Positions 14,519-64,000 of a stretch of 64,000 bases of DNA are shown here, one piece after another; position 1 is the stretch's first letter, and each line of letters opens with the position of its first letter. The stretch comes from Squalus acanthias. Taxonomy: Eukaryota. Made by a program: the position numbers and the translations under genes. The stretch lies in assembly GCA_030390025.1 (NCBI GenBank), contig CM059432.1, forward strand, positions 84,384,001 through 84,448,000, given 5' to 3'. Below the pieces are notes generated by a model that worked only from the letters and a program-made list of their open reading frames with translations, was not told where the DNA came from and did not search any database.

Positions 14519-14887
14519 GGAGGTGGGAGATAGAGACAGGAACACAAACTGCGGCGGTGGGGGGAGAGGGAGACAGAAAGACAATCTGGGGGGGAGGGGA
14601 GAGAGACAGAAACAAACTGGGGGGTGGGGCGGGAGAGAGACAGAAACACAAACTGGGGGGGGGGAGAGAGAGAGAAACACAAACTGGGGGAGAGAGAGAC
14701 AGAAACACAAACTGGGGGGGAGAGAGACAGAAACACAAACTGGGGGGGAGAGAGAGAGAAACACAAACTGGGGGGGAGAGAGACAGAAACACAAACTGGG
14801 GGGGAGAGAGAGAGAAACACAAACTGGGGGAGAGAGAGACAGAAACACAAACTGGGGAGAGAGAGACAGAAACACAAACTGGGGGGG
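14519..14887. repeat. G-rich ~28-bp minisatellite, block 1
   Basis: (G5-10)AGAGAGACAGAAACACAAACT tandem units. Confidence 0.97.
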
Positions 14888-16352: not shown

Positions 16353-17042
16353 GGGGAGAGACAGAAACACAAAATGGGGGGGAGAGACAGAAACTCAAAC
16401 TGGGGGAGAGAGAGACAGAAACACAAACTGGGGGGGGAGAGAGACAGAAACACAAACTGGGGGGGGAAGAGAGACAGAAACACAAACTGGGGGAGAGAGA
16501 GACAGAAACTCAAACTGGGGGAGAGAGAGACAGAAACACAAACTGGGGGGAGCGAGAGACAGAAACACAAACTGGGGCAGAGAGACAAAAACACAAACTG
16601 GGGGGGGAAGAGAGACAGAAACACAAACTGGGGGAGAGAGAGACAGAAACTCAAACTGGGGGGGGAAGAGAGACAGAAACACAAAATGGGGGGGAGAGAC
16701 AGAAACTCAAACTGGGGGAGAGAGAGACAGAAACACAAACTGGGGGGAGCGAGAGACAGAAACACAAACTGTGGGGGAGAGAGAGAGACAGAAACACAAA
16801 CTGGGGGGAGAGAGACAGAAACACAAACTGGGGGGAGCGAGAGACAGAAACACAAACTGGGGTGGAGAAACAGAAACACAAACTGGGGGGGCGAGAGAGA
16901 CAGAAACACAAACTGGGGGGGCGAGAGAGACAGAAACACAAACTGGGGGGCGAGAGAGACAGAAACACAAACTGGGGGGGCGAGAGAGACAGAAACACAA
17001 ACTGGGGGGTGAGAGAGACAGAAATACAAACTTGGGATGGGG
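16353..17042. repeat. G-rich ~28-bp minisatellite, block 2 (a last unit resumes at ~22757-22788)
   Basis: Same unit as block 1. Confidence 0.97.
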
Positions 17043-18570: not shown

Positions 18571-20322
18571 ATGGAAGAGAGGATGTCATCCTATGTGTAA
18601 AAAAAGGTTAATATAACCAAGAAATGGGTACTCAGGCTGTTGCATGCTGAACATCCTATGGACGCTGCAGCTACATGGACTGAGAGCAAGGAATATAATA
18701 AGTCTGTGGAAAAGGCCATATGGTTGGTCTGCTCCCAGAAACAGATGCAGCTTATGGGGAAGCGCATTCAGACTCTCATAGAAGAGCTAAGGGAAGAAAG
18801 CCAACTGTCCCGTGCCAGAGCCATAGTAGGGGAGAGGTTGTTAGCAGAGCTAAACTCAAAGATCAGGAACAGTTGCAGATAATAGAGGAACACCGTGCCA
18901 GTAAGGGATACCTCCAGTGTCAGGCCACCGAGGCCAAAAGTAGTGAACTGGCATTGCGAGAAGAGAACACCCGCCTTGCCAAGCAATTAAGGGAATTACA
19001 AGAAAAGTTAAAAGACGTTCAGACAGCTTACAGAGTAGCCAGTACTAGGGGGTTTGAGGTAGGAGACCACGGCCCCTGTCAGAAGCAGATTGAGAGTCTG
19101 AACCTTGCTCTGTCTAAGGCAAAAGGCATGGTGTGCCTGATAAGCCCGGGTGCGGCCCAGGAAGGCCTGGAAGAGCAGGGGGAGACTGTTCGACCACCAC
19201 CTGTGGCGCCAAGGAGAAGCTTAGTTAGGCAGCAGGAGGGGCAGATAATCTGTGAGGCTGACAGGGAGTGCACACCACCACCTGTGGCGTCGAGTTTTGA
19301 CTCGGTCTGGCAGCAGGGAGAGGGGGGCAAACCGAAGCAGGAAAAGTCGGGGCCGGGGCCGATGTGCCCAGCCCGACAGCAAAAGTTTGGCCCGCCCACC
19401 AGTGGTGGAGGTCAGGGACACCTTGAAAATCAATTCGTGGCTCCCCACGGTACCCAACAGCTTAGGGTTATGGTAAGCCACCTGAGTAAACTTACCCAAA
19501 AGGGAGACACCTCAGTCCACTTCATGGAAGTGGAACAGGCAGCAGGCATCAATGACTGTGATGATGCCGAGATGGCAAAAATGCTCCTGTTCTCACTGGA
19601 TGGCAAGCTATACCAGTCTCTCTCTGCTGAGAGCGAGAGAGGACAGAATGGGTATGCTGCCGTTAGAGAAGAAGTTTTAGAGGCCATGGGGATGAACGAT
19701 GGAAGTCCCTTCTCCCAGGTGGAGAGGACAGTGCAGCTCGCAGGGGAGACCCCACAGGCTTTCGCAGACAGGCTGTGGCCTGTGCACAGGGGTGCTTGTA
19801 ATAGGGATCTCGACCGAGCGAACCTGAACAGGGACGAGCTGGCCCACTGGCTCCGTAGCCTAGTGGCAAACAGCTTGCCACGAATCAAAGCCAAGGCTGA
19901 GCTTTGGTTTGACCATAGAGACCCCCGGGTCACCGAGGAGGCAGTGGTCAGACAACTGACCCTAGCCTACCTGGAACGGTAGAGGGGCTGAAGAGCCCCC
20001 ACCAAAAGGAAAGGTGTATGAAATAAAGCCCAGTCAGGATAAGAAGGAGTGGCACCAGGAAGGTGGTAAACCTTCCGACACAAAGCGTAACTGCTTCGGG
20101 TGCGGGAAGAGTGGGCACTGGAGAAAGGATTGTAGAAATCCCTGGATGGATATACTAACAAAGAATTCCCCAGCTTTTGCCCCAAAAGTAGAGGCACCGA
20201 CCTCTTCCCCCACACTGGACACAATAGTAGCGGCCATCAGAGTCCTGTTTGGTGGCCCAGGGAAGGTAGCTACAGCCACTGGTGCTGCAATCCCATCTGC
20301 CCCCCCTAACGCAGACCTATGA
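18571..20322 (+). pseudogene. gag: gag (coiled-coil N-terminus, capsid-like region, CCHC knuckle), one early stop and two frameshifts
   Basis: ORFs 18640-18882, 18720-19982, 20014-20322; CFGCGKSGHWRKDC. Confidence 0.85.
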
Positions 20323-20958
20323 CTAGAACCAGCGCAGCCTGTCTACCTGTGTTCCCCGGGATACGATGGTAAGATGGGGGTGGAGAAAGTGCAGGGGAGA
20401 TGTTTGGTGGACACCGGAGCTGCCAGCACGGTGGTCCATTCGGAAGACCTGACCAATTCACCCAGGTCTAACGGGGTCTCGTACAGTTTAATGGGAGTCA
20501 CAGGGAACGAGCAGGCTGGGGCAATGTCCAAACCTTTGGACATAGATTTAGGATCCTTCCATACCACGTGGGAGGGTAACCAAAAGGCCGGCAAGTTGGC
20601 CAAGCAGGGGGCCAGGGAAGGAGAGTTCTGGGATCCCTATAAAGCAGGTCCGGTAGCCGCAATCCGGGACAAGGGAGGCACACAGTGGGTAGCTTTGCCC
20701 CCGGACTTAAAGCAGGTCCAAGCACAGGATCCCATCCTTAAGGCCATCCTGGTAAAGAGAGAGAATGGGGAATCCATAGAAGGTCCGTTCAGGGCAGCGG
20801 ACGAGATTTTAAAACAAATTCACTGGCAAGCAGCCAGTAACCTGGGGAGCCAGCAGCAGAAAAATCGGCTGCTGTTAGAACCCCAGAGAACCCACGAGTG
20901 GGAGATTGACCAGTGTAAGCTGTTCAAACCCGGAAGCAGGGAACTGCCCCCAAGTTAG
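20323..20958 (+). pseudogene. pol: pro/pol remnant: aspartic protease fused to RNase H C-terminus and integrase-proximal linker; RT deleted
   Basis: LVDTGA; HTTW|EGNQKAGKLAKQGA; LKQVQAQDPILK; no YxDD. Confidence 0.78.
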
Positions 20959-32145: not shown

Positions 32146-35100
32146 ACCCTGTAGGAATTGGTTCTTACTCTACACTCAGGAAAGAGTCCGAGAGCAGGAG
32201 CAGTCAAACAACAACAACCACTGCAAAACTGCTAAAGTGACATCACAACCAGGAAGGAGCTGATTGGTAAGTAGGACGTGGTGAGTATTTCTACAGTCCA
32301 GTCGTTAAAGTAAAAGTAAGGTCTCTAGTTTAGAGTAAGTAGTGTGTAAAGTGAAGTAAGGTCCCTAGTGTATTTAATATTCTTTAATTTAGAGGAAGTA
32401 AAGGGAGTAAATTAAGGGAAGGACATGGCAGGACAGCTCGGCAGCGTGGAGTGCTCCTCCTGTGCTATGTGGGACACTTTTGGTGTCCAGGGCGAACACA
32501 TGTGCAGGAAGTGTCTCCAGCTGCAGCTACTCGAAATCCGCATTTCGGATCTGGAGCTGCGGCTGGAGTCACTGTGGAGCATCCGCGAGGCTGAGATCTA
32601 CATGGATAGCGCGTTTAACGAGGAGGTGGTCACACCGCAGGTAAAGAGTGCACAGGCAGAAAGGGAATGGGTGACCGCCAGACAGAGTAAAAGAACTAAG
32701 AAGATAGTGCAGGAGTCCCCTGGGTCCATTTCCCTCTCCAACAGATTTTCCGTTTTGGATACTGCTGGGGGAGATGGTTTCTCAGGGGAATGCAGGAAGA
32801 GCCAAATCCGTGGCACTATGAGTGGCTCAGCTGCACAGGAGGGGAGGAAAAAGAGTGGGAGAGCAATAGTGATAGGGGATTCTATCGTAAGGAGAACAGA
32901 TAGACATTTCTGTGGCTGCAGACGTGACTCCAGGATGGTATGTTGCCTCCCTGGTGCCAGGGTCAAGGATGTCACTGAGCGGCTGCAGGGCATTCTGAAG
33001 GGGGAGGGTGAACAGCCAGAGTTCATGGTCCATATCGGTACCAACGACATAGGTAGAAAGAGGGACGAGCTCCTGCAAGCAGAATATAGGGAGCTAGGAA
33101 ATAAATTAAAAAGCAGGACCTCAAAGGTAGTAATCTCAGGATTATTCCCAGTGCCACGTGCTAGCGAGAGCAGAAATAGGAGAATAGACCAGATGAATGC
33201 GTGGCTGGAGTGATGGTGTAGGAGGGAAGGATTTAAATTCCTGAGGCATTCGGACCAATTCTGGGGAAGGTGGGACCTGTACACGCTGGACGGGTTACAC
33301 CTCGGCAGAACCAGGACCAATATCCTCACAGGGGGGTTTGCTAATGCTGTTGGGAAGGATTGAAACTAGGTTGTCAGGGGGCTGGGAACCTAAGTGTGGG
33401 CCCAGAATGGAGAGAAACAAAGCTGGAAGTGCAAGTTAGAAACGTAGTCAGCAAAGCTAGTAGGGAGCAGAAACAAAGGCCAACAGTAAAGAGGGTCAAA
33501 GTGCAGAAAAATATTCAACAGGCAAAGTTGAAGGCACTTTATCTAAATGCACATAGCATTCGCAACACGGTGGATGAATTAATGGCACTAATAGAAGTAA
33601 ATGGGTATGATGTAATTGCCATTACAGAGACATGGTTGCAGGGTAACCAAAGCTGGGAACTGAATGTTCCAGGGTACTCAACATTTAGGAAGGACAGACA
33701 AAAAGGAAAAGGAGGTGGCATAGCGCTATTAATAAGGGATGAGATCGGTATGATAGAGATAAAAGATCCTGGCTCGGCAGATTGTGATGTAGAACTGGAA
33801 TCAGTTTGGGTGGAGCTAAGAAACAGCAAAGGGCGGGAAACATTGGTGGGAGTTGTGTATAGGCCACCAAACAGTAGTGGTAATGTAGGGCACAGTATCA
33901 ATCAAGAAATTAGAAGTGCATGTAACAAGGGCAATACGGTAATCATGGGGGACTTTAATCTACATATTGACTGGGCAAATCAAATTACCACTAATGGTGT
34001 GGAGGACGAATTCTTGGAATGCATGCGAGATGGTTTCCTGGATCAGTCTGTGGAGGAACCAACCAGGGAACAGGCTATTCTGGATCTGGTACTGTGTAAT
34101 GAGAAAGGTCTAATCAATAATCTTGTGGTAAAGAGGCCTTTAGGGACAAGTGACCATAATATGATTGAATTTTACATTAAGTTTGAGAGTGATGTAGCCC
34201 AATCTGAAACTAAGGTCTTCAATCTAAACAGAGGAAACTACAAGGGTATGAGGGACAAGTTGGCCATGGTAGATTGGGAGACTACACTAAAAGGTATGAA
34301 GGTGGACATACAATGGCTAACATTCAAGGAAATAATGCATAATTTGCAACAAACATATATTCCTCTAGGGCACAAAAACCCAAAAGGAAAAGTGATCCAA
34401 CCATGGCTAACAAAAGAAATTAAAGCTAGTATTAAGTCAAAGGAGGAAGCTTATAAAGTTGCCAGAAAAAGCGGTCAGCCTGAGGATTGGGATCTTTTTA
34501 GAAATCAGCAAAGGGGGACCAAGAAATTGATAAAGGGAAAATGGAATATGAGCACAAGCTAGCGAAAAATATAAAAACGGATTTTAAAAGCTTCTTATAG
34601 GTATGTGAAAAGGAAAAGACTGGTGAAGGTAAATGTAGGTCCTTTACAGTCAGAGACGGGAGAATTTATAATAGGGAATGAGGAAATGGCAGAGAAATTA
34701 AATAAATACTTTGTTTGTGTCTTCACGGAGGAAGACACAAAAAACCTCCCAAAAATACGAGAAAACCAAGGGTGTGGCGAGAATGAGGAACTTTAAGAAA
34801 TTATTATTAGTTAAAAAACAGTACTAGCAAAATTAATGGGACTAGAAGTCGATAAATCCCAAGGACCGGATGACCTACATCCTGGGGCTTTGAAATATTT
34901 TTATTCAAATACAATAATACCTGTACAACTCATCAATTACATAGTAAATCCATTACATAGTAAATCCATTACATTCATCCATCACAGTAAAAAAATAAAG
35001 CCTTAAAAACAGCCGTATAATTAATATAAATGCAATGATTACTTTTACAAATAATCAATAATGTTTACAGTACAAATACCCTTAAGCAATTCCACACAAC

Positions 35101-44346: not shown

Positions 44347-46681
44347 ATTAAAGTAGTCACTCTGGGCTGTATTTAAGCACCTTCCATGGACTAGTTGCAC
44401 AATAACATTGGCAAATCCATAGTTGCAGGTCTCCAATATGTCCTTTTAACTATGATTGATGAGTGTCATGGGAAGAGCAACCAAAAGGACAAGAGTAAAA
44501 CAAACATAGAACACCCTGGAATTTGATGTAAAAAAATAAGAGCATGGCGTGGATTTGGGGCACATGTGATGCTATTCGTTAAAATAGCACAACTATCAAT
44601 GTAATCATACAGCTAAATGTAGGTCTCCATTAACATAGGTATTCCATTGCCATTAAGAACATGGATCTAGTTGCTGCTTGAAGAATTTCTTTCTGAACTT
44701 GGAAACTTCAATTTAAACAGTTTTTTTGGAGCAGTAATCTGACAACAACTGTATAAGTAGGGGCCATCTATATTTGGTTCATGTTTTCCAAGTGTATTTC
44801 TGCCCAGTGAAAGTAGAAGGGATATGCCTAAAAAAACTAACATAATCATAGAAACTTTAAAACTGGTTTGTGTTTTTTTTACATTTAATCCATATTAATT
44901 AAATTGTTATATAATACTAAAGCAACATTATGTGAAATATGTAATATCAAGAATACTTGCAAATCAGACATCAAGGGGGTAACAAGGCATTATTTGAATT
45001 ATAATGTTTGATGATCATTACCCTTATCAAAGAAAATCCTTTGGAATAAACATCCTTTTACAAAATACATTTTAATTAAAAAATTCTTAACATTGTTGAA
45101 TATGTTCTTTATAATAGAGGATGGTTTTATTTTGATTGACTGGTTTCAGAAACTAATGCTTATTGGCATTGTAATTCGAATACAAGCAATCCATTCTGCT
45201 CCGTGCATAGTTTTCCTGATAATAAGCACTATTCATATTACTTAAGTGGCATGAACACACAAAAATAAAGTAATTAAAAAAATAAAGTAGTTTAGTGTTT
45301 TTGTTGATATTTGCTTTAAGTTTTCCATATAAGTGTTCGTGAAAAAAGTTTTGCTTAGCTGACTTTTTTTCATTTAATTTTCTTTTACAGAAAACCATCA
45401 AAAATGATACGAGCTTGTTCTTCTAGAAACATCCTGTATTATTGCAAATAGAGATTAACAATTAGTTCGAAGTTCAATAAATCGTGATACCTACCTCAAA
45501 TCTTCTGCTTTATCAGGCTACTACAATGAACAGAATCCCTTATAATTAAAGGAAGCAATATTTTTGCAGCTTCAGCTCAATGAGGTAACTGACCTTGATC
45601 TAATTCAGATGCAGCTTTCTTAGTAAAAACTTAGTCAATGGATATGGAAAATTGTTTTCTTGGATAGAGTCTTTCATTATTCTCAATAAAAACACATTTA
45701 TATATCAACACATATTTAGATACAGCTGAGTTTTGAATTCTAGCCGCAATAAATTTCAAGGAAGACATACCCACTAATAAATATTTAAGAGTCATTTAGT
45801 GCCTTCGTTTTTAAGACCATGGCCCGTATTTTCCGATCGCAGGCCTCTCGCGGGCTGAGGCCTGCGATCTGGAAAAATCTACGCCCTTACCTGAGGGCTC
45901 CCGGGATGCACACGCTTCTGCTCCTGGGCCTCTCCAAACTTGAAGTGCGCAGGGCCCACGTATCCCAGGGGCGCATGTAGTTCGCAGCGTCCCTGGGATC
46001 ACGTGGGCCATGGGGAGCCAATCACAGAAGGGAATCTCCCTTCATACATTTGACAGGAAGACCTGTCAAATATATGAATGGAGATCACCCCAAAAACATA
46101 GTCAAACTTTTTAAATAATTTTTTTTTAAATCACATTTTTAAAATGACTTGAAATTACAATAAATTAAGGGGTAAAAATTCAGTTGGTTGCGCCTCCCGT
46201 TAGCGCCTTAAATGGGCGCTAATGGGGCGTTAAGGCGCTAACGCCCGGGCGCAGCGCTGTTTGCGCCGCTCGAGAACTTAACTTGAGATTGTGCGGCGGC
46301 GCTAAAACTTACCGCTGCGACCACCTGCGCGCGCAGATTGTGACGTCAGTCCGTGGTGCAACGCCCTTGGGGCGCCCCGGAGCGGAAATTGAGTGGCGCC
46401 CCCTGCCTTACCGCCTGGCGCTTCCAACGACCGGAAGACTGGAACGTTATCAATCGGTCTGGGGCTGGGGGGGGGCGCTATTTAAAGGGGGCCTCTTCCT
46501 GTCTTTTTCTGTGGTCGACATTTATGCACCACTCGTTCTGAGAGAGAGAGAGAGATTCGGAGAGAGAGAGAGAGAGACTTCTACATTGACTCAACGCTTT
46601 GTGAGGTAGTTTTGCCTAGTTCATCCTAACTTTGCTGCTACTTTCGTTGCTGTACCTCATTACTTTTCTGGCAAAGAGAAG

Positions 46682-47842
46682 ATGGGGGCTGCAATGATTG
46701 GGGGCGTCGTCCTGCTCCAGCTCAATCGGAGCAGAGTGAGACGCAGACAGAGAGTGGCAATGATGGCCAGACGGAGGAGGCCCATCAGGCGCATGTACAG
46801 GAGAGCTTACCCTCCCAGGGTATATCGTGAACAGCTCTCCTACATCCACATGTCCGAGGAGCTGTGTTTGCGAAGGCTGCGATTCAGCAAGGAGGTGGTC
46901 ACTGAGCTCTGCCACCTGCTGCAGCCAGATCTGCAGCCTCAGCTGAGGTCCAGGACGTCTCTGTCGGTGGCAGTGAAGGTCACAGTGGCCTTGAACTTCT
47001 ACGCCACTGGCTCATTCCAAGCTGCTGTTGGGGACCTCGCCAATATCTCCCAGTTTGCGGTGCATCGCTGCATCCGGCAGGTCACCAATGCCCTCTTCAC
47101 AAGGAGACGAGACTTCATCTCCTTCCCTATGACCCCAGACAAGCAGCATGACCGTGCTATGGGCTTTGCGAGGGTAGCGGGCTTCCCCATGGTGCAGGGC
47201 GCCATTGACTGCACGCATGTGGCTTTGCGTGCTCCGCGAGAGAATGCAGAGGAGTTCCGGAACAGAAAGGGGTTCCATTCCTTGAATGTGCAGTTGGTCT
47301 GTGACCACAGACAGGTGATTCTCGCTGTCAATGCCCACTATCCGGGCAGCTGCCACGATGCTTTCATCCTGCGCCAGAGTACTGTGGCAGAAATTTTCGA
47401 GGCACCGCATCAGCCAGTTGGTTGGCTTCTGGGGGACAAGGGGTACGCATTGAGCACCTGGCTGATGACACCGCTCCGTGCGCCAAACACCCCTGCTGAG
47501 CTGCGGTACCAGGAAAGCCAACAAGCAACGAGGAACATTATTGAGCGCACAATCGGCGTGCTCAAACAACGATTCCGCTGTCTGGACCATTCCGGAGGAG
47601 CCCTGCAGTACTCGCCTGAGCAAGTTTCCAAATTCGTAGTGGTGTGCTGCATGTTGCACAACATGGCAATCCTCAGGACGCAGCCAATGCCACCAGGCCT
47701 TGCAGCACCACAAGAGGAGGAGGAGGAAGAGGAGGAACAGGCCGAGGACGATGATCAGCAGCAGCACCAAGGCAGGAGGGCGGCCCACAATGGTCAAACT
47801 GCAAGGGCCGTCCGTCAACGACTAATAGCAAGCCGCTTCTAG
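46682..47842 (+). CDS. Harbinger DDE transposase (HARBI1-like family), 386 aa, intronless
   Basis: GAIDCTH, NRKGFHSLNVQ, GSCHD, GDKGY, IERTIGVLKQRFRCL, CCMLHN, acidic tail. Confidence 0.95.
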   Translation: MGAAMIGGVVLLQLNRSRVRRRQRVAMMARRRRPIRRMYRRAYPPRVYREQLSYIHMSEELCLRRLRFSKEVVTELCHLLQPDLQPQLRSRTSLSVAVKVTVALNFYATGSFQAAVGDLANISQFAVHRCIRQVTNALFTRRRDFISFPMTPDKQHDRAMGFARVAGFPMVQGAIDCTHVALRAPRENAEEFRNRKGFHSLNVQLVCDHRQVILAVNAHYPGSCHDAFILRQSTVAEIFEAPHQPVGWLLGDKGYALSTWLMTPLRAPNTPAELRYQESQQATRNIIERTIGVLKQRFRCLDHSGGALQYSPEQVSKFVVVCCMLHNMAILRTQPMPPGLAAPQEEEEEEEEQAEDDDQQQHQGRRAAHNGQTARAVRQRLIASRF

Positions 47843-48136: not shown

Positions 48137-49992
48137 CTACTTTTTGCCCTTCGAGGGTGATCTCCTTCCCTTGCGCACTTCCCCCCTTCTAACCCTACTG
48201 CTCCTCCGTAATGGGACCTCAGTGGCTGCAGCAAGGCTGGTGGAAGGCTGCTGCTTGTCAGACCCTGACACTGCAGATGCCCCTGAAGGACGGCCTCGAC
48301 CACTTCTGGGCCTGGAGGGCCCGGCTGCAGACTGCACCAACTCTGCATGGGCGGCAGCAGTCTGTCCTACAGGCGGTGGCAAGTGCAGTGGAGAAGTGAC
48401 AGTGTTGGCAGCAGGAATGCTGTCATCGTGAGAGAGGACAGCAACTCCCTGCTCGCCCGACACACTGGCACTCCCACGGGGCAGCACTTCAGCATCCGGA
48501 GCAATTTGCCTGAGAACAGATTGCTGGCCTGCTGCGGCGCGGTGACAGCCCCGGGGACATGTGCACGAACCATCGAGGATGGCAGCAGTCAGTGCTCGCG
48601 TGGCCTCAATCTGAGTCTGCATGAGAGCAGGCTCAGATGGGTTCCTGGCAGCCAGTGACTGAATTGCAGCAGTAAGCTTTAGTGTGGCATCCGCCTGTGC
48701 TACAGCGAAGTGCTCCACACTCCTTGCCAGTGCCTCAATGCATTCGGGCACCCTTCCCACTGCACCCATGAGCTCAGTGTGCATGACCACCGCCTGGCTG
48801 TTCATTTCTGCAATCAGCCGCTCCTCCTCTGCGTCCATTGCATTAGGAGTGTCTGGCATACTCTCCCTCTGGGGAGAAGGCTCCCGTTCTTCCCTCCCCC
48901 CCCCATGGCGTTGCTGCAGCCCGCTGGGTCCTGGAACTTCACCATCATCAGCCCCTTCCCCCCTGCTCCCCCGTTCTTCCCTCCCCCCCCCATGGCGTTG
49001 CTGCAGCCCGCTGGGTCCTGCAACTTCACCATCATCAGCCCCTTCCCCCCTGCTCCCCTCCGGGGAAGGCGTGTTCCCAGTGTGGCCATGGGCTTCCTCG
49101 GGAGAGGGTGGCACTGATGCTCCGGCTTCCTCTTCCTCCTCAGCTGCAGCATCACTCCCAGTGGCAGCTTCAGGGACCATCTCCTCAGCTGGTGAATCAC
49201 CATCTGAAAGCAGGGAGGTACAAGAGTGGCTTTAGCGTGAGGACAGGGTGGCAGTAAGGGAGGAATAAGTGCAGCGAGTTAGCAAGTTGGATTGAAAGTG
49301 TCAAAGGCTGGTATTGTGAGGGACAAGTGGAAGGACAGAGGACAAAAAGGTGATGACCTTACCATTGCTGTCCACAACGGGGTCGGCGTCTCCAGTGGCG
49401 ACGGGACCGATCACCCGGCTTGCCACAATCCTGTGGACGCGCTCCTCCAGATCGCTGAGGGGTTGCAGCTGAAGCCGCCCTCCACCCGTCCGTTGCTGCT
49501 GTCTCCGATTATGAGCCAGCTTAGCCTGCAAGAAAAAGGACAGCATCTGAGTCAATATACAGCCATGGTCTTGCCTGATGTGCCTCCCATAGGTGAATAG
49601 CCCTTACTGTATGCAAAGTGTGGAATGTGTGTGTGTGTTTGATGAAAGGGCCATAGGTGTTGGATGAGTGTTGTGCATTGGGGTTTTAAGACCCTCTGGC
49701 CATAGAGTGAGGTTGAGATGGAGGGATGGAGAGGTATTGAGAAAAAGCCACTCACCCTGACGACCCGAGTGAGGTCGTTGAACTTTTTGCGGCACTGGAC
49801 ATGGGTCCTGGGCACCATGCTCCTGGAGGAGACGCTCTGAGCCACCTCCCTCCACACTCTTCTGAACTCGCGTGGCAAAGGCCTCCTGCCACTCTCTGGG
49901 AACAGCATGCATCGTCTGCGCTCCACTGCGTCAACCAGAGCATCCAAGGCCCGCTCGGTGAAGCGATGAGCGCGTTCTCTCACCCTCTCCAT
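48137..49992 (-). CDS. Harbinger Myb/SANT-like DNA-binding protein, 3 exons (49992-49756, 49525-49363, 49203-48137), 488 aa
   Basis: RFTERAL..W.EVA..R...QCRKKFNDL; donors AGG/GTGAGT and ATG/GTAAGG, acceptors TTTTTCTTGCAG and CTGCTTTCAG; 237+163+1067=1467 nt, open throughout. Confidence 0.88.
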
Positions 49993-50821
49993 TCTTGGCA
50001 GCAAAATGGATTACAGGTCTCTCCAGGCTGAGATTCAAGGCTGCAATGAGCAGGGTGTGGCTGGGGAGCAAGTGGCCCCCCCCCGCTTTAAGAAGTGTCC
50101 GGCGCCAGTGTGTCTGTGTTCCCGCGCTAACTGGCAGCAGCTGCGCTGCGCTCGTGCGCTGAGTTAGCGCCTCACTCCTAGGCCTTTGCGCCTTAAGAGA
50201 GGTGTGCAGCGCCTAATTTAGCGCTCCACTCACCTCCCGGGGCGGTAAAAGTGAAGTTTCCTGTCAGTGCCGATAATTAGCGCCAGGCGCTAATATTTGC
50301 GCCCCAAATGGGGCGCGACCTAATTTCTACCCCTAAGTATTTTAAACAAAAATTTAATTTTTTGAAAAAAATAATTAAAGTTTTTTACGGGGCTAAAAAT
50401 AAACTTACCTTTTTTTAAAGTATTCTTAAATGATAAATCAGTGAAATTAAAAAAAAAAAAAACTTTTTTCAACTCTTATCCTGGTAAAAGCAGGCCTTAC
50501 GCCTGCTTTTACCAGGCGTAACAATTGTAAGGGTTTTCTGCAGGCGGAGGGTCTCCAAAAAGCGGAACTATCCGCCCGCAGAGGCCCTTCTCCAGGGCAG
50601 CCGGAGGATCTGTCAAGACCATTCTTGACAGATCGGAAATGCCGGTTTTCAGTGCATGCACTGTGCATGCCTAAAACCAGCATTTCCGATGTCCCTACAG
50701 GTGGGTACACAGCACGTACCCACCCGTAGGGATCAGAATGTCTGGGCCCATATTTTGATAATTTTCCCTTTTAGCCAAGAAAAAAATTGGTTTCCATTCA
50801 AAGCTTTTGAGCGAACAAACA

Positions 50822-53296
50822 CTTCTACATATAGATTGGGCTAACCAAATTAGTAACAATACTGTGGAGGAGGAATTCCTGGAGTGTATACAGGATGGTT
50901 TCCTGGACCAATATGTCGAGGAACCAACTAGAGATCAGGCCATCTTAGACTGGGTATTATGTAATGAGAAAGGATTAATTAGCAATCTTGTTGTGCGAGG
51001 CCCCTTGGGTTGGAGCGATCATAATATGATAGAATTCTTCATTAAGATGGAGAGTGAAGTAGTTGACTCAGAGACTAGGGTCCTGAATTTAAATAAAGGA
51101 AACTACGATGGTATGAGGCGCGAGATGGGTAGGATTGATTGGGGAATGTCACTCAAAGGGTTGACGGTGGATAGGCAATGGCAAACATTCAAAGATCGCA
51201 TGAATGAACTACAGACTTTGTTCATCCCAGTTTGGCATAAAAATAAAACAAAAAAGGTGACTCAACCGTGGCTAACAAGGGAAATCAGGGATAGCATAAG
51301 ATCCAAGAAGAGGACATATAAATTGGCCAGAAAAAGCAGAAAACCTGATGATTGGGAGCAGTATAGGATTCAGCAAAGAAGGACAAAGGGATTAATTAAG
51401 AGGGGGAAAATAGAGTATGAGAGTAAGCTTTCAGAGAACATAAAAACTGACTGTAAAAGCTTTTATAGATATGTGAAGAGAAAAAGATTGGTGAAGTCAA
51501 GCGTAGGTCCCTTGCAGTCAGAATCAGGGGAATTTATAATGGGGAACAAAGAAATGGCAGACCAATTAAATACATACTTTGGTTCTGTCTTCACAAAGGA
51601 GGACACAAATAACCTCCCAGAGATGTCGGGGAACATAGGGTCTAATGAGAGGGAGGAATTGAAAGAACTCAGTATTTGTAGGGAAATAGTGTTAGCGAAA
51701 TTGATGGGATTGAAGGCCAATAAATCCCCAGGGCCTGATAATCTACATCCTAGGGTACTTAAGGAAGTGGCCCTAGAAATAGTAGATGCATTGCTGGTCA
51801 TCTTCCAAAATTCTATAGACTCTGGAACAGTACCCATGGATTGGAGGGTAGCTAATGTTACCCCACTATTCAAAAAAGGTGGTAGAGAGAAAACGGGGAA
51901 TTATAGTCATCGGTAGTGGGGAAAATGCTAGAGTCCATTATAAAAGATGTAATAGCAGAGCACTTGGAAAACAGTGACAGGATCGGACAAAGTCAACATG
52001 GATTTACAAAAGGTAAATCGTGCTTGACTAATCTACTGGAATTTTTTGAGGATGTAACTGGTAAAATAGATAAGGGAGAACCAGTGGATGTGGTGTATTT
52101 GGACTTTCAGAAGGCTTTCAAAATAGGTCCCGCATAAGAGATTAGCGTGTAAAGTTAAGGCACATGGGATTGGGGGTAAGGTATTGACTTGGATAGAGAA
52201 CTGGTTGGCAGACAGAAAGCAAAGATTTGGAATAAATGGGTCTTTTTCCGAGTGGCAGGCAGTGACTAGTGGGGTACCGCAGGGATCGGTCCTTGGACCC
52301 CAGCTATTCACAATATATATGAATGATCTAGACGAGGGAATTGGATGTAATATCTCTAAGTTTGCAGACGACACAAAGCTGGGTGGGAGTGTGTGCCGTG
52401 AGGAGGATGCCGAGAAACTCCAGTATGATTTGGACAGGTTGGGTGATTGGGCAGAAGCATGGCAGATGCAATATAATGTGGATAAATGCGAGGTTATCCA
52501 CTTTGGTGTCAAAAACAGGAAGGCAGATTATTATCTGAATGGCAATAGATTGGGAGAAGGGGAAGTGCAACGAGACCTGGGTGTCCTTGTGCACCAGTCG
52601 CTGAAGGTAAGCATGCAGGTGCAGCAGGAGGTTAAGAAGGCAAATGATATGTTTGCCTTCGTAGCGAAAGGGTTCGAGTACAGGAATAAGGATGTCTTGC
52701 TGCAGTTGTACAGGGCCTTGGTGGGACCACATCTTGAGTATTGTGTGCAGTTTTGGTCGCCTTATCTGAGGAAGGATGTTCTTGCCATGGAGGGAGTGCA
52801 GCGAAGATTCACCAGGTTGATACCTGGGATGGCAGGAATGACGTATGAGGAGAGATTGGGTCGACTGGGCTTATACTCGCTGGAGTTTAGAAGAATGAGA
52901 GGGGATCTCATTGAAACTTATAACATTCTAACAGGACTAGACAGACTAGATGCAGGAAGGATGTTCCCGATGGCCGGGGAGTCCAGAACCAGGGGTCACA
53001 GTCTAAGGATAAGGTTAAAGGTAAGCCATTTAGGACTGAGATGAGGAGGAATTTCTTCACCCAGAGAGTGGTGAACCTGTGGAATTCTCTACCACAGAAG
53101 GCAGTAGAGGCCAATTCATTAAATATATTCAAGAAGGAGTTAGATATATTTCTTAAGCTAAAGGGATCAAGGGATATGGAGAGAAGGCAGGGACAGGGTA
53201 CTGAATTTGGATGATCAGCCATGATCTCATTGAATGGCGGAGCAGGCTCGAGGGGCTGAATGGCCTGCTCCTGCTCCTATCTTCTATGTTTCTATG
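50822..53296 (+). mobile_element. 5'-truncated CR1 LINE (ORF2 with a small deletion and frameshifts)
   Basis: SDHN, KSPGPD, LDFQKAF, GVPQGS, FADD, HLEYCVQFW; tail CTATGTTTCTATG. Confidence 0.95.
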
Positions 53297-56104: not shown

Positions 56105-59100
56105 ATATTTGATCGAGGTGTTCAAAATCATGAGGGGGTCTGGACAGAGTAGATAGAGAGAAACTGTTCCCATTGGCAGAAGGGTCGAGAACCAGAGGAC
56201 ACAGATTTAAGGTGATTGGCAAAAGAACCAAAGGCGACATGAGGAAAAACTTTTTTACGCAGCGAGTGGTTAGGATCTGGAATGCACTGCCTGAGAGGAT
56301 GGTGGAGGCAGACTCAATCATGGCTTTCCAAAAATAAGAAAAAAATTAGCAGGGCTACGGGGAAAGGGTGGGGGAGTGGAGCTAGCTGAAGTGCTCTTGC
56401 AGAGAGCCGGCATAAGCTCAATGGGCCAAATTCTTTGCTGTAACCATTCTATGATACTATGGCCAGAATTTTCCGGGGGCCGTGCGGGCGTGATCGGAGG
56501 CGTGTTGGTTGGGAAAGTTGAAATTTCTTGCAGCGGGTCAGGAACCCACCGTCATCCCACCTTTCCCTCAGGCGTGTCTGTTAGCACGGTAGCAACCTGG
56601 CCGGCAGAGGCGGGCAACCCAATTTAAAGGATTATTAGCTTGTTGTCAGACCCTTAAGAATGTTTTTAACCTTATCTTTCCAATTTCACTGGATGTCCAC
56701 GGGACTCATGCTGCTCAGGGACCACGTCTGTCAATCTGAGGCGGGAGTTGAGTGGCCATTGATCCAGCTGATTAGTTGACAGCATCAAATGTACTATAAA
56801 AGCACCCACCTGACAGCTGATCACTTTCCTCAGGCAGAAGCTGTTGCTCACTGCATTGCCAGCACAGATTGAACTTTCTGCAGGCTGCAAGTCTTTCCAG
56901 CAAAGTCTCCATCCAGTATCACCTTATTGGAAGAGCCTCTCTCACCATTGACAGATTGCTTCTGTTATCTCTACTTCACCTGCCATGTATTCCATCAACA
57001 TGGGTGCCATTTATACTGTCTCACCTTGGTCCTCAGAATCTGATGCCCAACACCAGCAGCACCAGGCACACCAGCAGTACCAACAACAACACCAACCTTC
57101 TCTGCAATCACCTGATGCTCCACAGGACAGAGGGCATCAGCACCCGAGCACATTGCTGCCCAGGAGGCCAGGGATGGCCTCGCCATGGCCAGGTTTACTT
57201 AACTTTATGCTGTACACTCATATGACGCCAAGTTGGCACCACCCCACACCAACACCATAAAGCATCCCTACAATGACCAAGCCATTCCTATCACACTCAC
57301 CACCATTGCTGGCAGCACCATTATGTCTCACCATTCACTGCAACTCACTAAGCCACTTCCAAAGGTGCACACAAATCTGTCCAAGACCGGAAAGTGTTGA
57401 AAATAAAGATTTTTATGTTTGACAGCACATTAACGGAAACTTTACATAAACATTGGATAAAACACCCAAGTGGCTACCGTTGTGAATCTACTTCCGTGTC
57501 ATCTTTCTCTTCTGCATGCTTCTACAAGGTGCTACCCCTGTGGCTTCAGCAGAGGTAGTGGCAGCCTACTCACTTCCCTGCTGCCAAGGAGCTGGAGAGC
57601 ACCTTGCTGCGCATCAATGGGGCCATGAGGACCCATGTCTACGCTGACACCCCTTCTAGAGAGGAGGTCTATGAGTCTCTGCCATCGATTCTCCATAGCT
57701 AGCCATCTATTCGCCATAGAGACCATGCAATCCTGTGAGTGACACATTAGCTGCTCCATGTAGGTGCCCATCCTATCCATGGAGGAGCCTACAGTCACCA
57801 TCGCTTGTGACATGGTGGTGCTCATGTTGGAGATGGACTCCTCCATTCTCTGAACATTTGCAGACATCGCACTAGCAAAACCTGTCACAGCCTCCTGCAC
57901 TTCTTCCTGCACCTCCAGGATCGACCTCTTTCTGGATGGCCCCCGAGGTTCAACGTCTGCATGCAACTGAGCAGAGCTGGATGCGTCCTGTGCCCTCCGG
58001 CGAGGAGTCTCCACTGCTGTCCCTGTCTCCACCATCTGCTCTTGCTCACTTGTGAGTTGTGAGACACCAGGTGACAACACTACTCTATCTCGCGGGGTGC
58101 GTATCTGCGCTGGTGCCGTGTGCGCTTATGTCTGGTGACAGTGCACCCTCAGAGGCCAGGGGCTCCTCTGAGGAGTCGTCTTCCTCTTCCTTCTGGACAG
58201 TGTGGGGGGGGGGGAGTGGGGGGTGGGGGGTGGGGGGGCTCTTGATGGACCTGTGGGAGAGTAAAGAGATGAGTTAGATATGTCATATGAAGAATGGGTA
58301 CAGATACCATTATGCACATGATGACCATTCAATGGCTGCTGACATCAGTCCCCATAGGAGTGACTGCTGTATGCCATGTGACTGTATGATATGTATTTCT
58401 GTCACCAGGTTGCTGAGATGTCTGCCTCTCTCCGTCTCCCATCGCCAGCTGCTCGGCAACTCCAGATATTTCTAAAGCAACCTCCTCTGCTGTTGTACAG
58501 TTTGCAAATGATGGAGGGCCACCGCAGGTTCTCTCCCTCTCCCCCTTATTTTGAGCTTTCTTTTCCTGCAAGGAGGGAAAGAAGAGAAAGTTGAGTGAGA
58601 GTGATGGAATGAGTGTAAGGAATGGATGGGTTAGATCTTTAGAGGGATACTATGATGGAGTGGGGTGCCAAAGCCAAGTGGCCTCTTTGTGTGTTGATAG
58701 TTGGTATGATTGCATTAGGATGAGGGTGAGTGTGAGGGGTGGTTAGTCAGATGGGGATGTGATAATGTAGATAGAGAGAGAGGGATGGGTGGATGTGCAA
58801 GGTGTGTTGGTGTGAGTAATGATGTGCAGGAGCAGGGTTGGGAAGGCAGAGTGATGGGGATGTGATGAGAGGCACAGCAGGATGAAGTTGGGTGTGGCTT
58901 TGCATTCACGTTTCCTGATCTAATGAGATCATTAAAAAGTTTGCGGCACTGCACCCAGGTCCTCCTGACCACATCCCTGCTGTTGACCTCCTCTGCATAC
59001 TCCAACCAGGCTGTTTCGGTCTCCTGGGAAGGTCTCTTCCACCCATTGGAAGGGAAGAGGACTTCCCTGCGTGCTCTGACTCCGTCTACAAGCATATGGA

Positions 59101-59454
59101 GGGAGTCATCGGAGAACCTGGGTGCAGCCCTCTGCCTCTGTGCAGTCATTTCCAAAGTGTTTGCAGCACTCCAATGCTGTCGTGCACTGACTGCACTATT
59201 TTAGATCAACCTTCAAATGTAACGTGGCCATGGCCCCTTTAAATATCCCGGCTGAAAATGCGTCATTGATGACGTCAGCAGACCCGCACCATTTAATTGG
59301 ACTAGGTAACGCGCAGGGCGGACTTAATGGGCCCTATTGAAGTAAAGTCGTTTTGTGCAGCGGGATGGAGTTAGCAATGAGGCCGCGATCCGCCGTGGCC
59401 ACTGCCTGTACCAGACTTGCCCAGGTAGGGAAAATTCCGGCCTATGATTCTATG
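56105..59454 (+). mobile_element. CR1 3' fragment (56105-56460) whose (TTCTATGA)n tail is split by a Harbinger
   Basis: LIEVFKIM..LFPLAEGSRTRGHRFK..KNFFTQRVVRIWNALP; tail resumes at 59443. Confidence 0.85.
56461..59442. mobile_element. Non-autonomous Harbinger: transposase almost entirely deleted, Myb gene retained but frameshifted
   Basis: TIR GGCCAGAATTTTCC / GGAAAATTCCGGCC (13/14), TSD TAT/TAT; minus exons 59149-58910, 58565-58406, 58250-~57480. Confidence 0.9.
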
Positions 59455-59957
59455 AAACTTTACATTGAAAAAGCCGGTCCTGGGCTGTGCGGGACCGGAG
59501 AGAGATGCACGGCCGCGCAGCTTATAGGGAACATTGCCCCCAGCCCTCATGACCAGCCTCCCCTCCCTCCCGATTGCCAAATGCCCCAATCGCAGGCCTC
59601 CCCCCCCCATCCCAATTGCCGACCATCATCTCCCCCCATCCCTGATTGCTGACATTTTCCCCTCCTCCCAGCCCCGATTGCCGACCTTTCCCAATTGCTA
59701 GAAACTGTCCCCAAGGGTCCCCGGCTACGGCCTACTGCCACTGGTGTAACCTCCTGCCCACCAGCCAGGCTGTCCATTTGGCTGGCTGCCAGGCGAGAAA
59801 TGGAGGGACAAGATGTTAATGAGGTCCTGCTGTTAAGCTTGAGCTTTTCAGGTCTTCGGCCATTTTCTGCCTCAACCGCACCCTCCTCTCCTCCCCATAA
59901 ATATCGGGGCCAAAGATTCATACTTCTTAGAATCATACAAATTAATTCAAGCAATCA

Positions 59958-60056
59958 AATGTCAATATGGATAGCTCTTTCAAAGAGCTTGCACGGGTAC
60001 GACAGGCTGAATAGCCTTCTTCTGTGCTGTAGATTCTATAATTCTATGATTCTATA
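59958..60056 (+). mobile_element. CR1 3' tail fragment
   Basis: GATAGCTCTTTCAAAGAGC...GGCTGAATAGCCTTCTTCTGTGCTGTA then ATTCTAT repeats. Confidence 0.75.
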
Positions 60057-60334
60057 TGGAAGGGTTAGTTTAAGAAAAAAGCCAGTTTTTAGAATATTTT
60101 GGAATTTCTGGGTCATAGTTAAGAATGTCTTTCAGTGTTAAATCTCCAGTTGGAAGAGTACAGTAATGAAATCTGCCAGCACTGTGGAATGGTTCAGTGC
60201 AAAGGAAAATACTTCTATTTCATTGAACCATGATATGTAGTTTTAATGATGCGGAGATGCCGGTGTTGGACTGGGGTGGACAAAATTGAGAGGTCGCACA
60301 ACACCAGGTTATAGTCCAACAGTTTTATTTGAAA

Positions 60335-60372
60335 TCACAAGCTTTCGGAGCTATCACTCCTTCCTCAGGTGA
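60335..60372 (-). ncRNA. Minimal type I hammerhead ribozyme motif
   Basis: UCAC-CUGAGGA-A-GGAG-ugauag-CUCC-GAAA-GC-UU-GUGA: core boxes, stem II, palindromic AAGCUU, stem I UCAC/GUGA. Confidence 0.85.
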
Positions 60373-60708
60373 AGTAAATTGGATACAGAATCGCCAGAGC
60401 ATATATAGATGGAAAAAAAAGCATGTGTACTTTACAATTGCAGACCAATAAATTAAATCATCCTGACTATCTGCCGAGGTGTGATAAAGTTAATTAAGTC
60501 AGCCAGGAAGGTACCACATCAAAAGACATAGCAAGATACAACTGAGACAATGAGGTGTAGTCGCAGGGGTTCCAACGTGTCAAAAGCTGCCGTCTGTATG
60601 TAAAACGAAAAGCTTTAAAAAAAAATTTTTACTTTTTTACTGGGAAAATTTTTACTTTTTTACTGGGAATCACATCTGTGAACAAGCTAACGACGACTCG
60701 AGTCCGGA

Positions 60709-62961
60709 TCACGTCATGTATCGTGACATAAACCCAAGATCCCGATTGAGACCGTCTTCATGAGTTCGGAACTTGGCTATCAGTTTCTGCTCGATGATTT
60801 TGCGTTGTCGTGTGTTTCTAAGGTTGCCTTGGAGAACGCTTACCCGCAGATCCGAGGCTGAATGTCCTTGACTGCTGAAGTGTTCCCCGACTGGGAGGTA
60901 ACAATCCTGCCTGGCGATTGTTGCGCGGTGCTCGTTCATACGTTGTCTCAGTGTCTGCATGGTCTCGCCGATGTACCATGCCGCGGTGCATTCTTTCCTG
61001 CAACGTATGAGGTAGACAACGTTGGCCGAGTCACATGAGTATGTACCATGTACCTGGTGGGTAGTGTCCTCACGTGTGATGGTGGTATCTGTGTTGATGA
61101 TCTGGCATGTCTTGCAGAGTTTGCCATGGCAGGGTTGTGTGGTGTCGTGGTCGCTGTTATCCTGAAAGCTGGGTAATTTGCTGCGAACGATGGTACTTCT
61201 GAGGTTAGGCGGCTGTTTGAAGGCAAGTAGTGGAGGCGTGGGGATGGCCTTAGCGAGGTGTTTGTCGTCATCGATGACATGTTGAAGGCTGCGAAGAACA
61301 TGTCGTAGTTTCTCCGCTCCGGGGAAGTACTGGACGACGTAGGGTACCCTGTTGGTTGTGTCCCGTGTTTGCCTTCTGAGGAGGTCTATGCGATTTTTCG
61401 CTGTGGCCCGTCGGAACTGTCGATCGATGAGTCGAGCGTCATATCCCGTTCTTACGAGGGCGTTTTTCAGCGTCCGTAGGTGTCCATCGCGTTCCTCCTC
61501 GTCTGAGCAGATCCTGTGTATTCGCAGGGCTTGTCCATAGGGGATGGCTTCTTTAACATGGTTAGGGTGGAAGCTGGAGAAGTGGAGCATCGTGAGGTTG
61601 TCCGTGGGCTTGCGGTAGAGTGAAGTGCTGAGGTGTCCGTCTTTGATGGAGATTCGTGTGTCCAGGAATGAGACCGATTCTGAGGAGTAGTCCATGGTGA
61701 GTTTGATGGTGGGATGGAACTTGTTTATGTTATCGTGTAGTCTTTTCAGTGATCCTTCGCCATGGGTCCAAAGGAAGAAAATGTCGTCGATGTATCTGGT
61801 GTACAGCGTTGGCTGGAGGTCCTGTGCAGCGAAGAAGTCTTGCTCGAACTTGTGCATGAAGATGTTGGCGTATTGGGGTGCGAATTTGGTCCCCATGGCT
61901 GTTCCGTGTGTTTGGGTAAAAAAATGGTTGTCGAAGGTGAAGACATTGTGGTCAAGGATGAAGCGGATGAGTTGTAGGATGGCGTCTGGAGATTGGCTGT
62001 TGTTGATGTTGAGTACTGAGGCTGTTGCAGCGATGCCGTCATCGTGGGGGATACTGGTGTAGAGTGCCGATACGTCCATCGTGGCAAGGAGTGTTCCTGG
62101 TTCAACTGGTCCGTGGGTGCTGAGTTTCTGTAAGAAGTCTGTAGTGTCGCGACAGAAGCTGGGGGTTCCCTGTACGATGGGTTTCAGAATGCCCTCGACG
62201 TATCCAGAGAGGTTCTCACACAGGGTTCCATTGCCTGATACGATAGGACGTCCGGGTGTGTTGGCTTTGTGTATCTTTGGGAGGCAGTAGAAGTCTCCCA
62301 CGCGGGGAGTACGTGGGATGAGAGCGCGTAGGATGTTTTGAAGGTCTGGATCGAAGGTCTTGATCAGTCTATTGAGTTGGCGGGTGTGTTCTTTGGTCGG
62401 ATCTGCGGGTAGCTGTCTGTAGTGTTCCTGGTTGTCCAGTTGTCGGTATGCTTCTTTACAATAGTCCGTTCTGTTCTGTATGACGATGGCTCCTCCTTTG
62501 TCCGCTGGTTTGATGACAATGTTGCGGTTGGTCTTGAGAGCGTGGATGGCGTTGCGTTGTGCTCGGGTGACATTCTGGACTGTCTTGTGAGTGCGGCTGA
62601 TGAATCTGGCGTTGATGCATTTCCTGACAGCTTGAGCATACATGTCAAGCTTGGGGCAGCGACCCTCCGGAGGGGTCCAGTTTGACTCTTTTTTCTTCGG
62701 TTGCTGCACTGCGAGTCCCTCTGTCTGCTGTTCTGGATCATTGATTGTCTCATTGGGTTTGTTGCTGACATCTTGGGATTTGTGGAAGTATTCCCGGAGC
62801 CTCATTCTCCTGATGAATTCCTCCGTGTCTGCCGCGAGACCGATGGGGTCCATTTTGGTGGTTGGGCAGAACTTGAGCCCTAGGGCGAGAACTTTGATTT
62901 CGTCTGGTTGAAGGGTGTGGTCCGACAGGTTGACGATGGTTGCAACCACAGGGAAGTCCAT
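60709..62961 (-). CDS. Penelope RT-GIY-YIG endonuclease, uninterrupted 750 aa from the ATG at 62961 (probably lacks the native N-terminus)
   Basis: IVNLS, KPADKGG, LPKIHK, GRPIVS, DVSALYT, GTAMG, RYIDD, CHGKLCKTC, NVVYLIRC..YIGET, GLN. Confidence 0.95.
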   Translation of the reverse strand: MDFPVVATIVNLSDHTLQPDEIKVLALGLKFCPTTKMDPIGLAADTEEFIRRMRLREYFHKSQDVSNKPNETINDPEQQTEGLAVQQPKKKESNWTPPEGRCPKLDMYAQAVRKCINARFISRTHKTVQNVTRAQRNAIHALKTNRNIVIKPADKGGAIVIQNRTDYCKEAYRQLDNQEHYRQLPADPTKEHTRQLNRLIKTFDPDLQNILRALIPRTPRVGDFYCLPKIHKANTPGRPIVSGNGTLCENLSGYVEGILKPIVQGTPSFCRDTTDFLQKLSTHGPVEPGTLLATMDVSALYTSIPHDDGIAATASVLNINNSQSPDAILQLIRFILDHNVFTFDNHFFTQTHGTAMGTKFAPQYANIFMHKFEQDFFAAQDLQPTLYTRYIDDIFFLWTHGEGSLKRLHDNINKFHPTIKLTMDYSSESVSFLDTRISIKDGHLSTSLYRKPTDNLTMLHFSSFHPNHVKEAIPYGQALRIHRICSDEEERDGHLRTLKNALVRTGYDARLIDRQFRRATAKNRIDLLRRQTRDTTNRVPYVVQYFPGAEKLRHVLRSLQHVIDDDKHLAKAIPTPPLLAFKQPPNLRSTIVRSKLPSFQDNSDHDTTQPCHGKLCKTCQIINTDTTITREDTTHQVHGTYSCDSANVVYLIRCRKECTAAWYIGETMQTLRQRMNEHRATIARQDCYLPVGEHFSSQGHSASDLRVSVLQGNLRNTRQRKIIEQKLIAKFRTHEDGLNRDLGFMSRYMT

Positions 62962-64000
62962 CGTCAACCTGTCGGACCACACCCTTCAACCAGACGAAAT
63001 CAAAGTTCTCGCCCTAGGGCTCAAGTTCTGCCCAACCACCAAAATGGACCCCATCGGTCTCGCGGCAGACACGGAGGAATTCATCAGGAGAATGAGGCTC
63101 CGGGAATACTTCCACAAATCCCAAGATGTCAGCAACAAACCCAATGAGACAATCAATGATCCAGAACAGCAGACAGAGGGACTCGCAGTGCAGCAACCGA
63201 AGAAAAAAGAGTCAAACTGGACCCCTCCGGAGGGTCGCTGCCCCAAGCTTGACATGTATGCTCAAGCTGTCAGGAAATGCATCAACGCCAGATTCATCAG
63301 CCGCACTCACAAGACAGTCCAGAATGTCACCCGAGCACAACGCAACGCCATCCACGCTCTCAAGACCAACCGCAACATTGTCATCAAACCAGCGGACAAA
63401 GGAGGAGCCATCGTCATACAGAACAGAACGGACTATTGTAAAGAAGCATACCGACAACTGGACAACCAGGAACACTACAGACAGCTACCCGCAGATCCGA
63501 CCAAAGAACACACCCGCCAACTCAATAGACTGATCAAGACCTTCGATCCAGACCTTCAAAACATCCTACGCGCTCTCATCCCACGTACTCCCCGCGTGGG
63601 AGACTTCTACTGCCTCCCAAAGATACACAAAGCCAACACACCCGGACGTCCTATCGTATCAGGCAATGGAACCCTGTGTGAGAACCTCTCTGGATACGTC
63701 GAGGGCATTCTGAAACCCATCGTACAGGGAACCCCCAGCTTCTGTCGCGACACTACAGACTTCTTACAGAAACTCAGCACCCACGGACCAGTTGAACCAG
63801 GAACACTCCTTGCCACGATGGACGTATCGGCACTCTACACCAGTATCCCCCACGATGACGGCATCGCTGCAACAGCCTCAGTACTCAACATCAACAACAG
63901 CCAATCTCCAGACGCCATCCTACAACTCATCCGCTTCATCCTTGACCACAATGTCTTCACCTTCGACAACCATTTTTTTACCCAAACACACGGAACAGCC
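61897..64000. repeat. Long inverted repeat: 61897-62939 pairs with 62958-64000
   Basis: Position x mirrors 125897-x; mirrored ORFs in the track are identical in several frames. Confidence 0.97.
62936..64000 (+). CDS. Second Penelope ORF copy (MVATTGKSIVNLSDH...), open to the window edge
   Basis: Mirror of the minus copy; ATG at 62936 in frame; absent from the ORF track because it has no stop in the window. Confidence 0.85.
   Translation, partial: MVATTGKSIVNLSDHTLQPDEIKVLALGLKFCPTTKMDPIGLAADTEEFIRRMRLREYFHKSQDVSNKPNETINDPEQQTEGLAVQQPKKKESNWTPPEGRCPKLDMYAQAVRKCINARFISRTHKTVQNVTRAQRNAIHALKTNRNIVIKPADKGGAIVIQNRTDYCKEAYRQLDNQEHYRQLPADPTKEHTRQLNRLIKTFDPDLQNILRALIPRTPRVGDFYCLPKIHKANTPGRPIVSGNGTLCENLSGYVEGILKPIVQGTPSFCRDTTDFLQKLSTHGPVEPGTLLATMDVSALYTSIPHDDGIAATASVLNINNSQSPDAILQLIRFILDHNVFTFDNHFFTQTHGTA

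Follow-up and report, generated by a model that had tools for sequence, protein, structure and literature searches.

A head-to-head pair of truncated Penelope-like elements in Squalus acanthias and a probable snap-back origin

Endonuclease-positive (EN+) Penelope-like elements (PLEs) are described as frequently carrying an inverted, 5′-truncated copy at their 5′ end (PMC8557442, PMC8969392). Head-to-head is reported to be the most frequent inverted arrangement, and palindromes at its junction have been read as traces of self-priming on the antisense strand (PMC3846280). We analyzed a 64,000-nt stretch of the Squalus acanthias genome (GCA_030390025.1, contig CM059432.1, positions 84,384,001 to 84,448,000; hereafter, the window), in which two 5′-truncated copies of one PLE stand head to head around an 18-nt unpaired loop. 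We consider that the pair probably arose in one retrotransposition event, by snap-back of a first-strand complementary DNA (cDNA) extended from a right-hand primer. The layout is already known, and this locus is a clean example of the ordinary kind. As in the canonical EN+ unit of Penelope/Poseidon, Neptune, Nematis, and Naiad (PMC8557442, PMC8969392), the truncated copy is inverted at the 5′ end and both outer ends are 3′ ends; also shared are the reverse transcriptase (RT) with a C-terminal GIY-YIG-type endonuclease (EN), a CX2-5CxxC linker, and a hammerhead, here putative, in the terminal repeat. The locus differs from that unit in that both copies are cut within the open reading frame (ORF) at nearly the same place, leaving ~2.7 kb each (predicted for the right arm). 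Moreover, no direct tandem copy forming a 5′ pseudo-long terminal repeat (pLTR), a feature that is optional for truncated insertions, was seen in the window, whereas the published examples are mostly pLTR-sized inversions.

The Pen2, Pen2a, and Pen3a elements of Adineta vaga share with this locus the head-to-head inverted repeats and the palindromes at the inverted junction (PMC3846280). The A. vaga palindromes are 18–38 bp long, lie at the 5′ end of the pLTR, and are discussed together with an antisense template, whereas the palindrome described here is 10 bp long and lies inside the ORF, and the first-strand cDNA would supply the antisense strand. PAc, the Poseidon of Anolis carolinensis, has in common an AT-rich target, a defined 3′ start of reverse transcription, and a hammerhead in the repeat, but belongs to another clade (PMC11167929). 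PLE proteins of the sharks Heptranchias perlo, Scyliorhinus torazame, and Mustelus asterias, which are uncharacterised partial gene models entered with no insertion structure, are 78–94% identical to this one over the shared part. In a literature search whose coverage excluded most subscription papers, we found none on shark PLE palindromes, nor on PLE cDNA snap-back beyond PMC3846280. The locus is therefore presented as a specimen resolved to the base, in which one arm can be named as the owner of the loop, the junction falls on a natural palindrome, and there is an apparent element-free allele. Such loci allow tests of how the inverted ends of PLEs form, a step left open in the accessible text of PMC3846280 and PMC11167929.

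The two arms and the centre

Positions x and 125897−x of the window are complementary at 1,044 of the 1,052 pairs tested, and all eight mismatches are central; at 49 other mirror offsets we found 252–327 matches per ~1,050, which is the chance level. An inverted-repeat search returned two arms of 1,043 nt each (61897–62939 and 62958–64000) with 100% identity and 18 nt between them, the right arm running to the window end. The mirror reported in the initial annotation, which reached the window edge without a mismatch in the arms, was recovered in full (1,043 of 1,043), and the proposed head-to-head layout of two element copies is supported by both the mirror and the loop analysis. The 5′ end of the right arm is 18–20 nt longer than that of the left, and mirror symmetry predicts its 3′ end at 65650. 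A self-comparison of the window showed no further direct copy of the element family besides the mirrored pair.

Contigs from four of the 24 matching public runs were compared with window positions 59000–62995. Runs X3 and X5 come from one sample (S3), the X1 contigs were covered to about 55%, and run X2 (organism B, five records only) was set aside; these contigs indicate presence, not absence. Judged by its sequences, organism A of the contig set is this species, in that single-copy contigs from two samples cover the left flank (59499–59776 and 59778–60246) with two to three other letters each, at depths of 4–16 in X1, X3, and X5. In X1, 93 contigs start from 60246 and have unrelated flanks, which places the end of the left arm at the 3′ end common to the family. 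The left end of the element, originally placed at 60248, is thus corrected to the boundary 60246/60247, up to which the S3 flank contigs also match. Beyond this boundary, X3 record 17 and X5 record 24 continue with 35 letters that do not fit the element. S3 would therefore appear to carry an element-free allele at 60246, and the insertion is probably polymorphic. A second S3 record carries the window letter at 60183, with depth excesses of 3.3 and 6.4. Additionally, the flank contig of sample S1 (X1 record 3) departs from the window after 60237, 9 nt before the S3 contigs do, which may reflect a third allele or another insertion in the same AT-rich spot.

The family is diverse: by identity, 7,006 X1 family contigs fall at 99+%, 8,430 at 95–99%, and 8,078 at 90–95%. 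At the nine variant sites inside the mirror (from the 40 sites given out of 126), the window letter stands in both arms, and 25–98% of the summed contig depth carries another. Since the arms agree at these variable sites and are identical over 1,043 of 1,043 positions, we conclude that they share one template. The probability of no difference in 1,043 nt is 3e-5 at 1% divergence, and two independent insertions were ruled out by this identity amid diverse family contigs. Zero differences bound the divergence at 0.29% (95%). With the mutation rate of the epaulette shark, 7e-10 per base per generation (PMC10587355), the bound corresponds to up to about 2 million generations, subject to the rate being that of another shark species. 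Because so low a rate permits so long a time, arm identity is too weak as a clock, and gene conversion could also equalise the arms. The description of the insertion as very young is accordingly not shown by the arm identity at a shark-like rate, but is favoured by the element-free S3 allele, which together with the stop-free frame points to youth.

The loop has a definable owner. The homologous protein P0055 fits the plus-arm reading through the loop, and not the minus-arm reading. Two X3 contigs agree with the window from 62938 onward and carry different letters upstream, where, judged by eye, the frame continues and resembles P0055. On these comparisons, 62938–62957 is natural sense sequence belonging to the right arm only. 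The loop has a GC content of 50% and is closed by a 2-nt microhomology, GG at 62938–62939 and CC at 62958–62959. At the truncation point of the right arm lies a natural, perfect 10-bp palindrome (62938–62947), so that, as expected of head-to-head PLEs, a palindrome is found at the inverted junction. There are nine such palindrome sites in the visible element (2,713 nt), and a random break would hit such an edge with a probability of 0.3%, or 1.5–1.7% with 2 nt of tolerance.

The central letters are as the initial annotation gave them, and its account of a left arm short of 12 nt between CCA repeats yields the same sequence as a GG/CC microhomology closing an 18-nt loop. Its proposed symmetry centre at 62942/62943 gains support as the centre of the natural palindrome exactly at the truncation point. 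The same letters result from three histories: a direct 2-bp snap-back; folding on the palindrome followed by the addition of one base and a slip by 12 nt onto the following CCA; or a palindrome without a spacer followed by a 12-nt deletion. From the sequence, a slip during synthesis and a later stabilising central deletion are indistinguishable. The initial annotation suggested that the pair could extrude a cruciform or yield hairpin RNA. Finally, perfect inverted repeats of several kilobases separated by just 18 nt make this locus a candidate fragile site; in eukaryotic cells, replication stalling was reported with a 12-bp spacer and not with one of 52 bp (PMC7999016), and the present spacer falls between these values.

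Origin of the double copy

Starting from the observed arm identity, loop ownership, microhomology, and left end, we envisage the following course of events, in which the priming side, the folding path, and the joining are conjectural. After nicking of AT-rich DNA by the endonuclease, the right-hand flank would serve as primer, and the RT would start on the RNA at the 3′ end of the element. The first strand would stop about 2.7 kb in, for reasons that we can only surmise, at the observed position 62938, after the natural palindrome. Its 3′ end may then have folded on the palindrome, added one base, and shifted by 12 nt onto the following CCA; alternatively, it may have paired immediately with the GG 18 nt away. 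Synthesis on the cDNA itself would next make the left arm, through to the element's 3′ end, and joining of this new end to the left flank would give the boundary 60246/60247. What results would be a dead head-to-head double copy with neither a 5′ repeat nor an N-terminus. The direction is read as right to left because the loop is natural in the right arm only. Two truncation points 18 nt apart over 2.7 kb are expected automatically from a fold-back, and other opposite-strand joints of the family occur in the X1 contigs. The single-event cDNA snap-back suggested at the outset is hence retained as the leading mechanism.

Several points weigh against this account. The natural sequence upstream of 62938 is known from two contigs of one run and from protein homology, and the empty site in S3 is deduced from the 35 non-element letters past 60246. 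Both fold-back pairings are energetically marginal: for a cDNA ending at 62938, the minimum-energy fold is the natural palindrome at −0.5 kcal/mol, and the 2-bp pairing across the 18-nt loop has +1.8 kcal/mol. The right end, the target-site duplication, and the tail lie beyond the window end at 64000, where the 3′ end of the right arm is a prediction from the mirror. The central junction was absent among the 15 of 132 joints and the 29 pieces given for the contigs. A word search with 62790–62990 in 24 runs gave a best share of 0.73 of 15 words and no complete match, which is uninformative on the junction. Moreover, neither of two inverted joints in X1 lay at a palindrome edge (0/2), the nearest palindrome being an 8-mer 4 nt away; this comparison used the window sequence as a proxy, and the contigs do not give the orientation of the joints. 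Since 0/2 other inverted joints fell on such an edge, palindrome-guided folding is not the sole route to inverted copies.

The strongest competitor, which we nevertheless regard as somewhat unlikely, is two-ended priming, in which both target strands are nicked, each primes a cDNA that begins at the 3′ end of the element, and the two cDNAs are joined head to head through the 10-mer or through GG/CC. With purified PAc, cleavage and extension occur on both strands, and the protein is predicted to form a dimer (PMC11167929), and a tail at one end alone is described as common in PLEs (PMC8557442). At −12.6 kcal/mol, pairing of two identical cDNA ends through the 10-mer would also be far more stable than either hairpin. 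However, this route needs two cDNAs of 2.7 kb to stop no more than 18 nt apart, unless the same broken RNA was copied twice, and coincident stops are unexpected in a family whose contig depth declines steadily from 3′ to 5′.

Long palindromes undergo central deletions, and a further account, which seems to us distinctly improbable, builds on this. Here a spacer-less palindrome centred at 62942/62943 was formed, or a single copy underwent fold-back when the DNA broke later, and repair then removed 12 nt between the CCA repeats. It gains from the natural palindrome, which makes 62942/62943 a true symmetry centre, but a single slip during synthesis yields the same letters in fewer steps, and one would expect a break-induced fold-back to end elsewhere than at the 3′ end common to the family. 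Our literature search for central deletions in long palindromes returned no paper. It is reported that snap-back duplications at breaks are driven by short inverted repeats and that instability rises when spacers are short or absent (PMC7999016).

Least of all do we credit a fold-back read or assembly artefact that mirrored a single longer element: it would account for the zero arm differences and for a centre missing from the joints given, and about 0.55–0.6% of genomic reads from Oxford Nanopore, a platform that may underlie this window, are fold-backs (PMC12870357), but HiFi reads have virtually none (PMC12870357), the centre holds no adapter or foreign letters, the loop's belonging to the right arm would make the left arm and all 60 kb to its left the mirrored side, Logan contigs of a public run contain inverted joints of this family as well, and PLEs typically show this layout (PMC8557442, PMC3846280).

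Extending the snap-back account, inverted ends throughout the family might arise by cDNA folding on short ORF palindromes and slipping, in which case junction loops would record the primed side, and near-full-length doubles that gain an ATG might, if read through, work as traps of kilobase hairpin RNA directed at their own family. We hold this combined proposal to be unlikely. If it were true, the many young copies would form a natural experiment on snap-back versus two-ended priming by an RT dimer. There was no RNA run among the 24 runs matching 62790–62990, and no host gene that could drive read-through was identified among the scanned long frames of the window (exons were not searched for).

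Identity and coding content of the element

The coordinates of the features are summarized in Table 1. The Penelope-like identity proposed earlier is corroborated by the RT core, the linker, the CCHH endonuclease motif, and the putative hammerhead. By its sequence motifs, the element is an EN+ PLE of the Neptune/Nematis type, where the type is assigned from the linker motif; the CX2-5CxxC linker is described as marking Neptune and Nematis, with Penelope/Poseidon having no Zn-finger linker (PMC8557442).

Table 1. Features of the head-to-head PLE pair and its left flank (window positions).
Feature	Positions	Strand	Basis
Left flank, single-copy in other samples, AT-rich beside the insertion	59499–60246		X1, X3, and X5 contigs
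Left arm, 5′-truncated PLE complete to the family 3′ end, 2,693 nt	60247–62939	−	Mirror, repeat search, family contigs
Putative minimal hammerhead ribozyme in the 3′ repeat (helix I UCAC/GUGA, CUGAGGA core, helix II, GAAA)	60335–60372	−	Motif scan
23-nt tandem duplication in the 3′ untranslated region, 2.1 copies, 100% matches	60622–60669		Tandem-repeat search
Open frame, 750 codons	60709–62961	−	ORF listing, translation
C-terminal GIY-YIG-type EN region (VYL...YIG; C654/C658/H678/H694, CCHH)	60712–61020	−	Motif, homology
CX4CxxC linker, Neptune/Nematis type, residues 611–619	61105–61131	−	Motif; kept in 4/4 homologues checked
RT core, RVT_1, residues 285–415, YIDD at 390	61717–62109	−	Pfam, E 1.2e-08, above cut-off
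Right arm, 5′-truncated copy, frame open up to the window edge	62938–64000	+	Mirror, repeat search, ORF listing
Natural perfect 10-bp palindrome, centre 62942/62943, at the 5′ truncation point of the right arm	62938–62947		X3 contigs, sequence
Unpaired loop, 18 nt, natural sense sequence of the right arm by comparison	62940–62957	+	Mirror, homologue and contig comparison

In the minus-strand frame, the ATG and the first seven codons come from the opposite arm and the loop, and the remainder is natural RT–EN sequence; the plus strand carries the same frame, open until the window edge. The closest proteins are from sharks, with Heptranchias perlo at 92% identity over 86% (figures from the best 120 of 1,702 protein matches). 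Both arms are 5′-truncated, because the close full-length homologues P0006, P0007, and P0017 extend 132–142 residues further at the N-terminus. About 130–145 N-terminal codons and the 5′ repeat are absent from both arms, and the complete ORF would encode about 880 aa. The minus ORF, first described as intact, is open for all 750 codons (62961 to 60709) but is truncated to this extent. Because the loop is 18 nt long, both frames remain open across the centre. Each arm gains an in-frame ATG from the other, at 62936–62938 (+) and 62959–62961 (−), with A at −3 and G at +4 (context ACGATGG); this is probably due to chance.

The Pfam GIY-YIG model did not match the 750-aa protein, though it is listed for several homologues. 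Additional Pfam matches at E up to 1 were all below the cut-off and were dismissed. The hammerhead motif scan gave one match in the whole window; the centroid fold of that segment shows both helices, but at z = −0.78, and the segment fits the minimal hammerhead motifs described for PLE repeats (PMC4209133). An Rfam scan gave no hammerhead match to the element. Its 14 matches to microRNA models at the centre were all below the gathering score, reflect only the hairpin, and were dismissed. The 23-nt tandem duplication of Table 1, should the right arm mirror it, was inherited from the template.

Further family joints and neighbouring features

The two X1 opposite-strand joints, 60892/61013 and 60588/62428, have depths of 76 and 50, against ~10 for the single-copy flank, and we take them for further inverted family copies that may be amplified. 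In X3 and X5, a joint from 60278 to 60247 (depth 25–29) runs a second time through the final 32 nt of the element after an insert of 15 other letters, and represents a repeated 3′ tip at another locus.

Among the 11 of 44 long frames of the window that were scanned, seven had Pfam matches, all of transposon type. Myb/SANT frames and a DDE_Tnp_4 transposase frame were found at 58718–59200 (−), 49555–50010 (−), and 46610–47839 (+), one of them ~1 kb left of the insertion; we take this pair of domains to mark Harbinger-type DNA transposons. Fragments of long interspersed nuclear elements with GDSL-esterase, AP-endonuclease, and RT domains, presumably CR1/L2-like, lie at 1713–2663, 9498–10445, 33345–34559, and 52127–53041. 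Two arrays of a 28-nt unit (14575–14960 and 16350–17034) are ~1.6 kb apart. The frames at 18702–19979 (+, 426 codons) and 20323–20955 (+, 211 codons) had no Pfam match; the latter contains a DTG motif, which we assume to resemble that of an aspartic protease and which possibly marks the remnant of an LTR retroelement.

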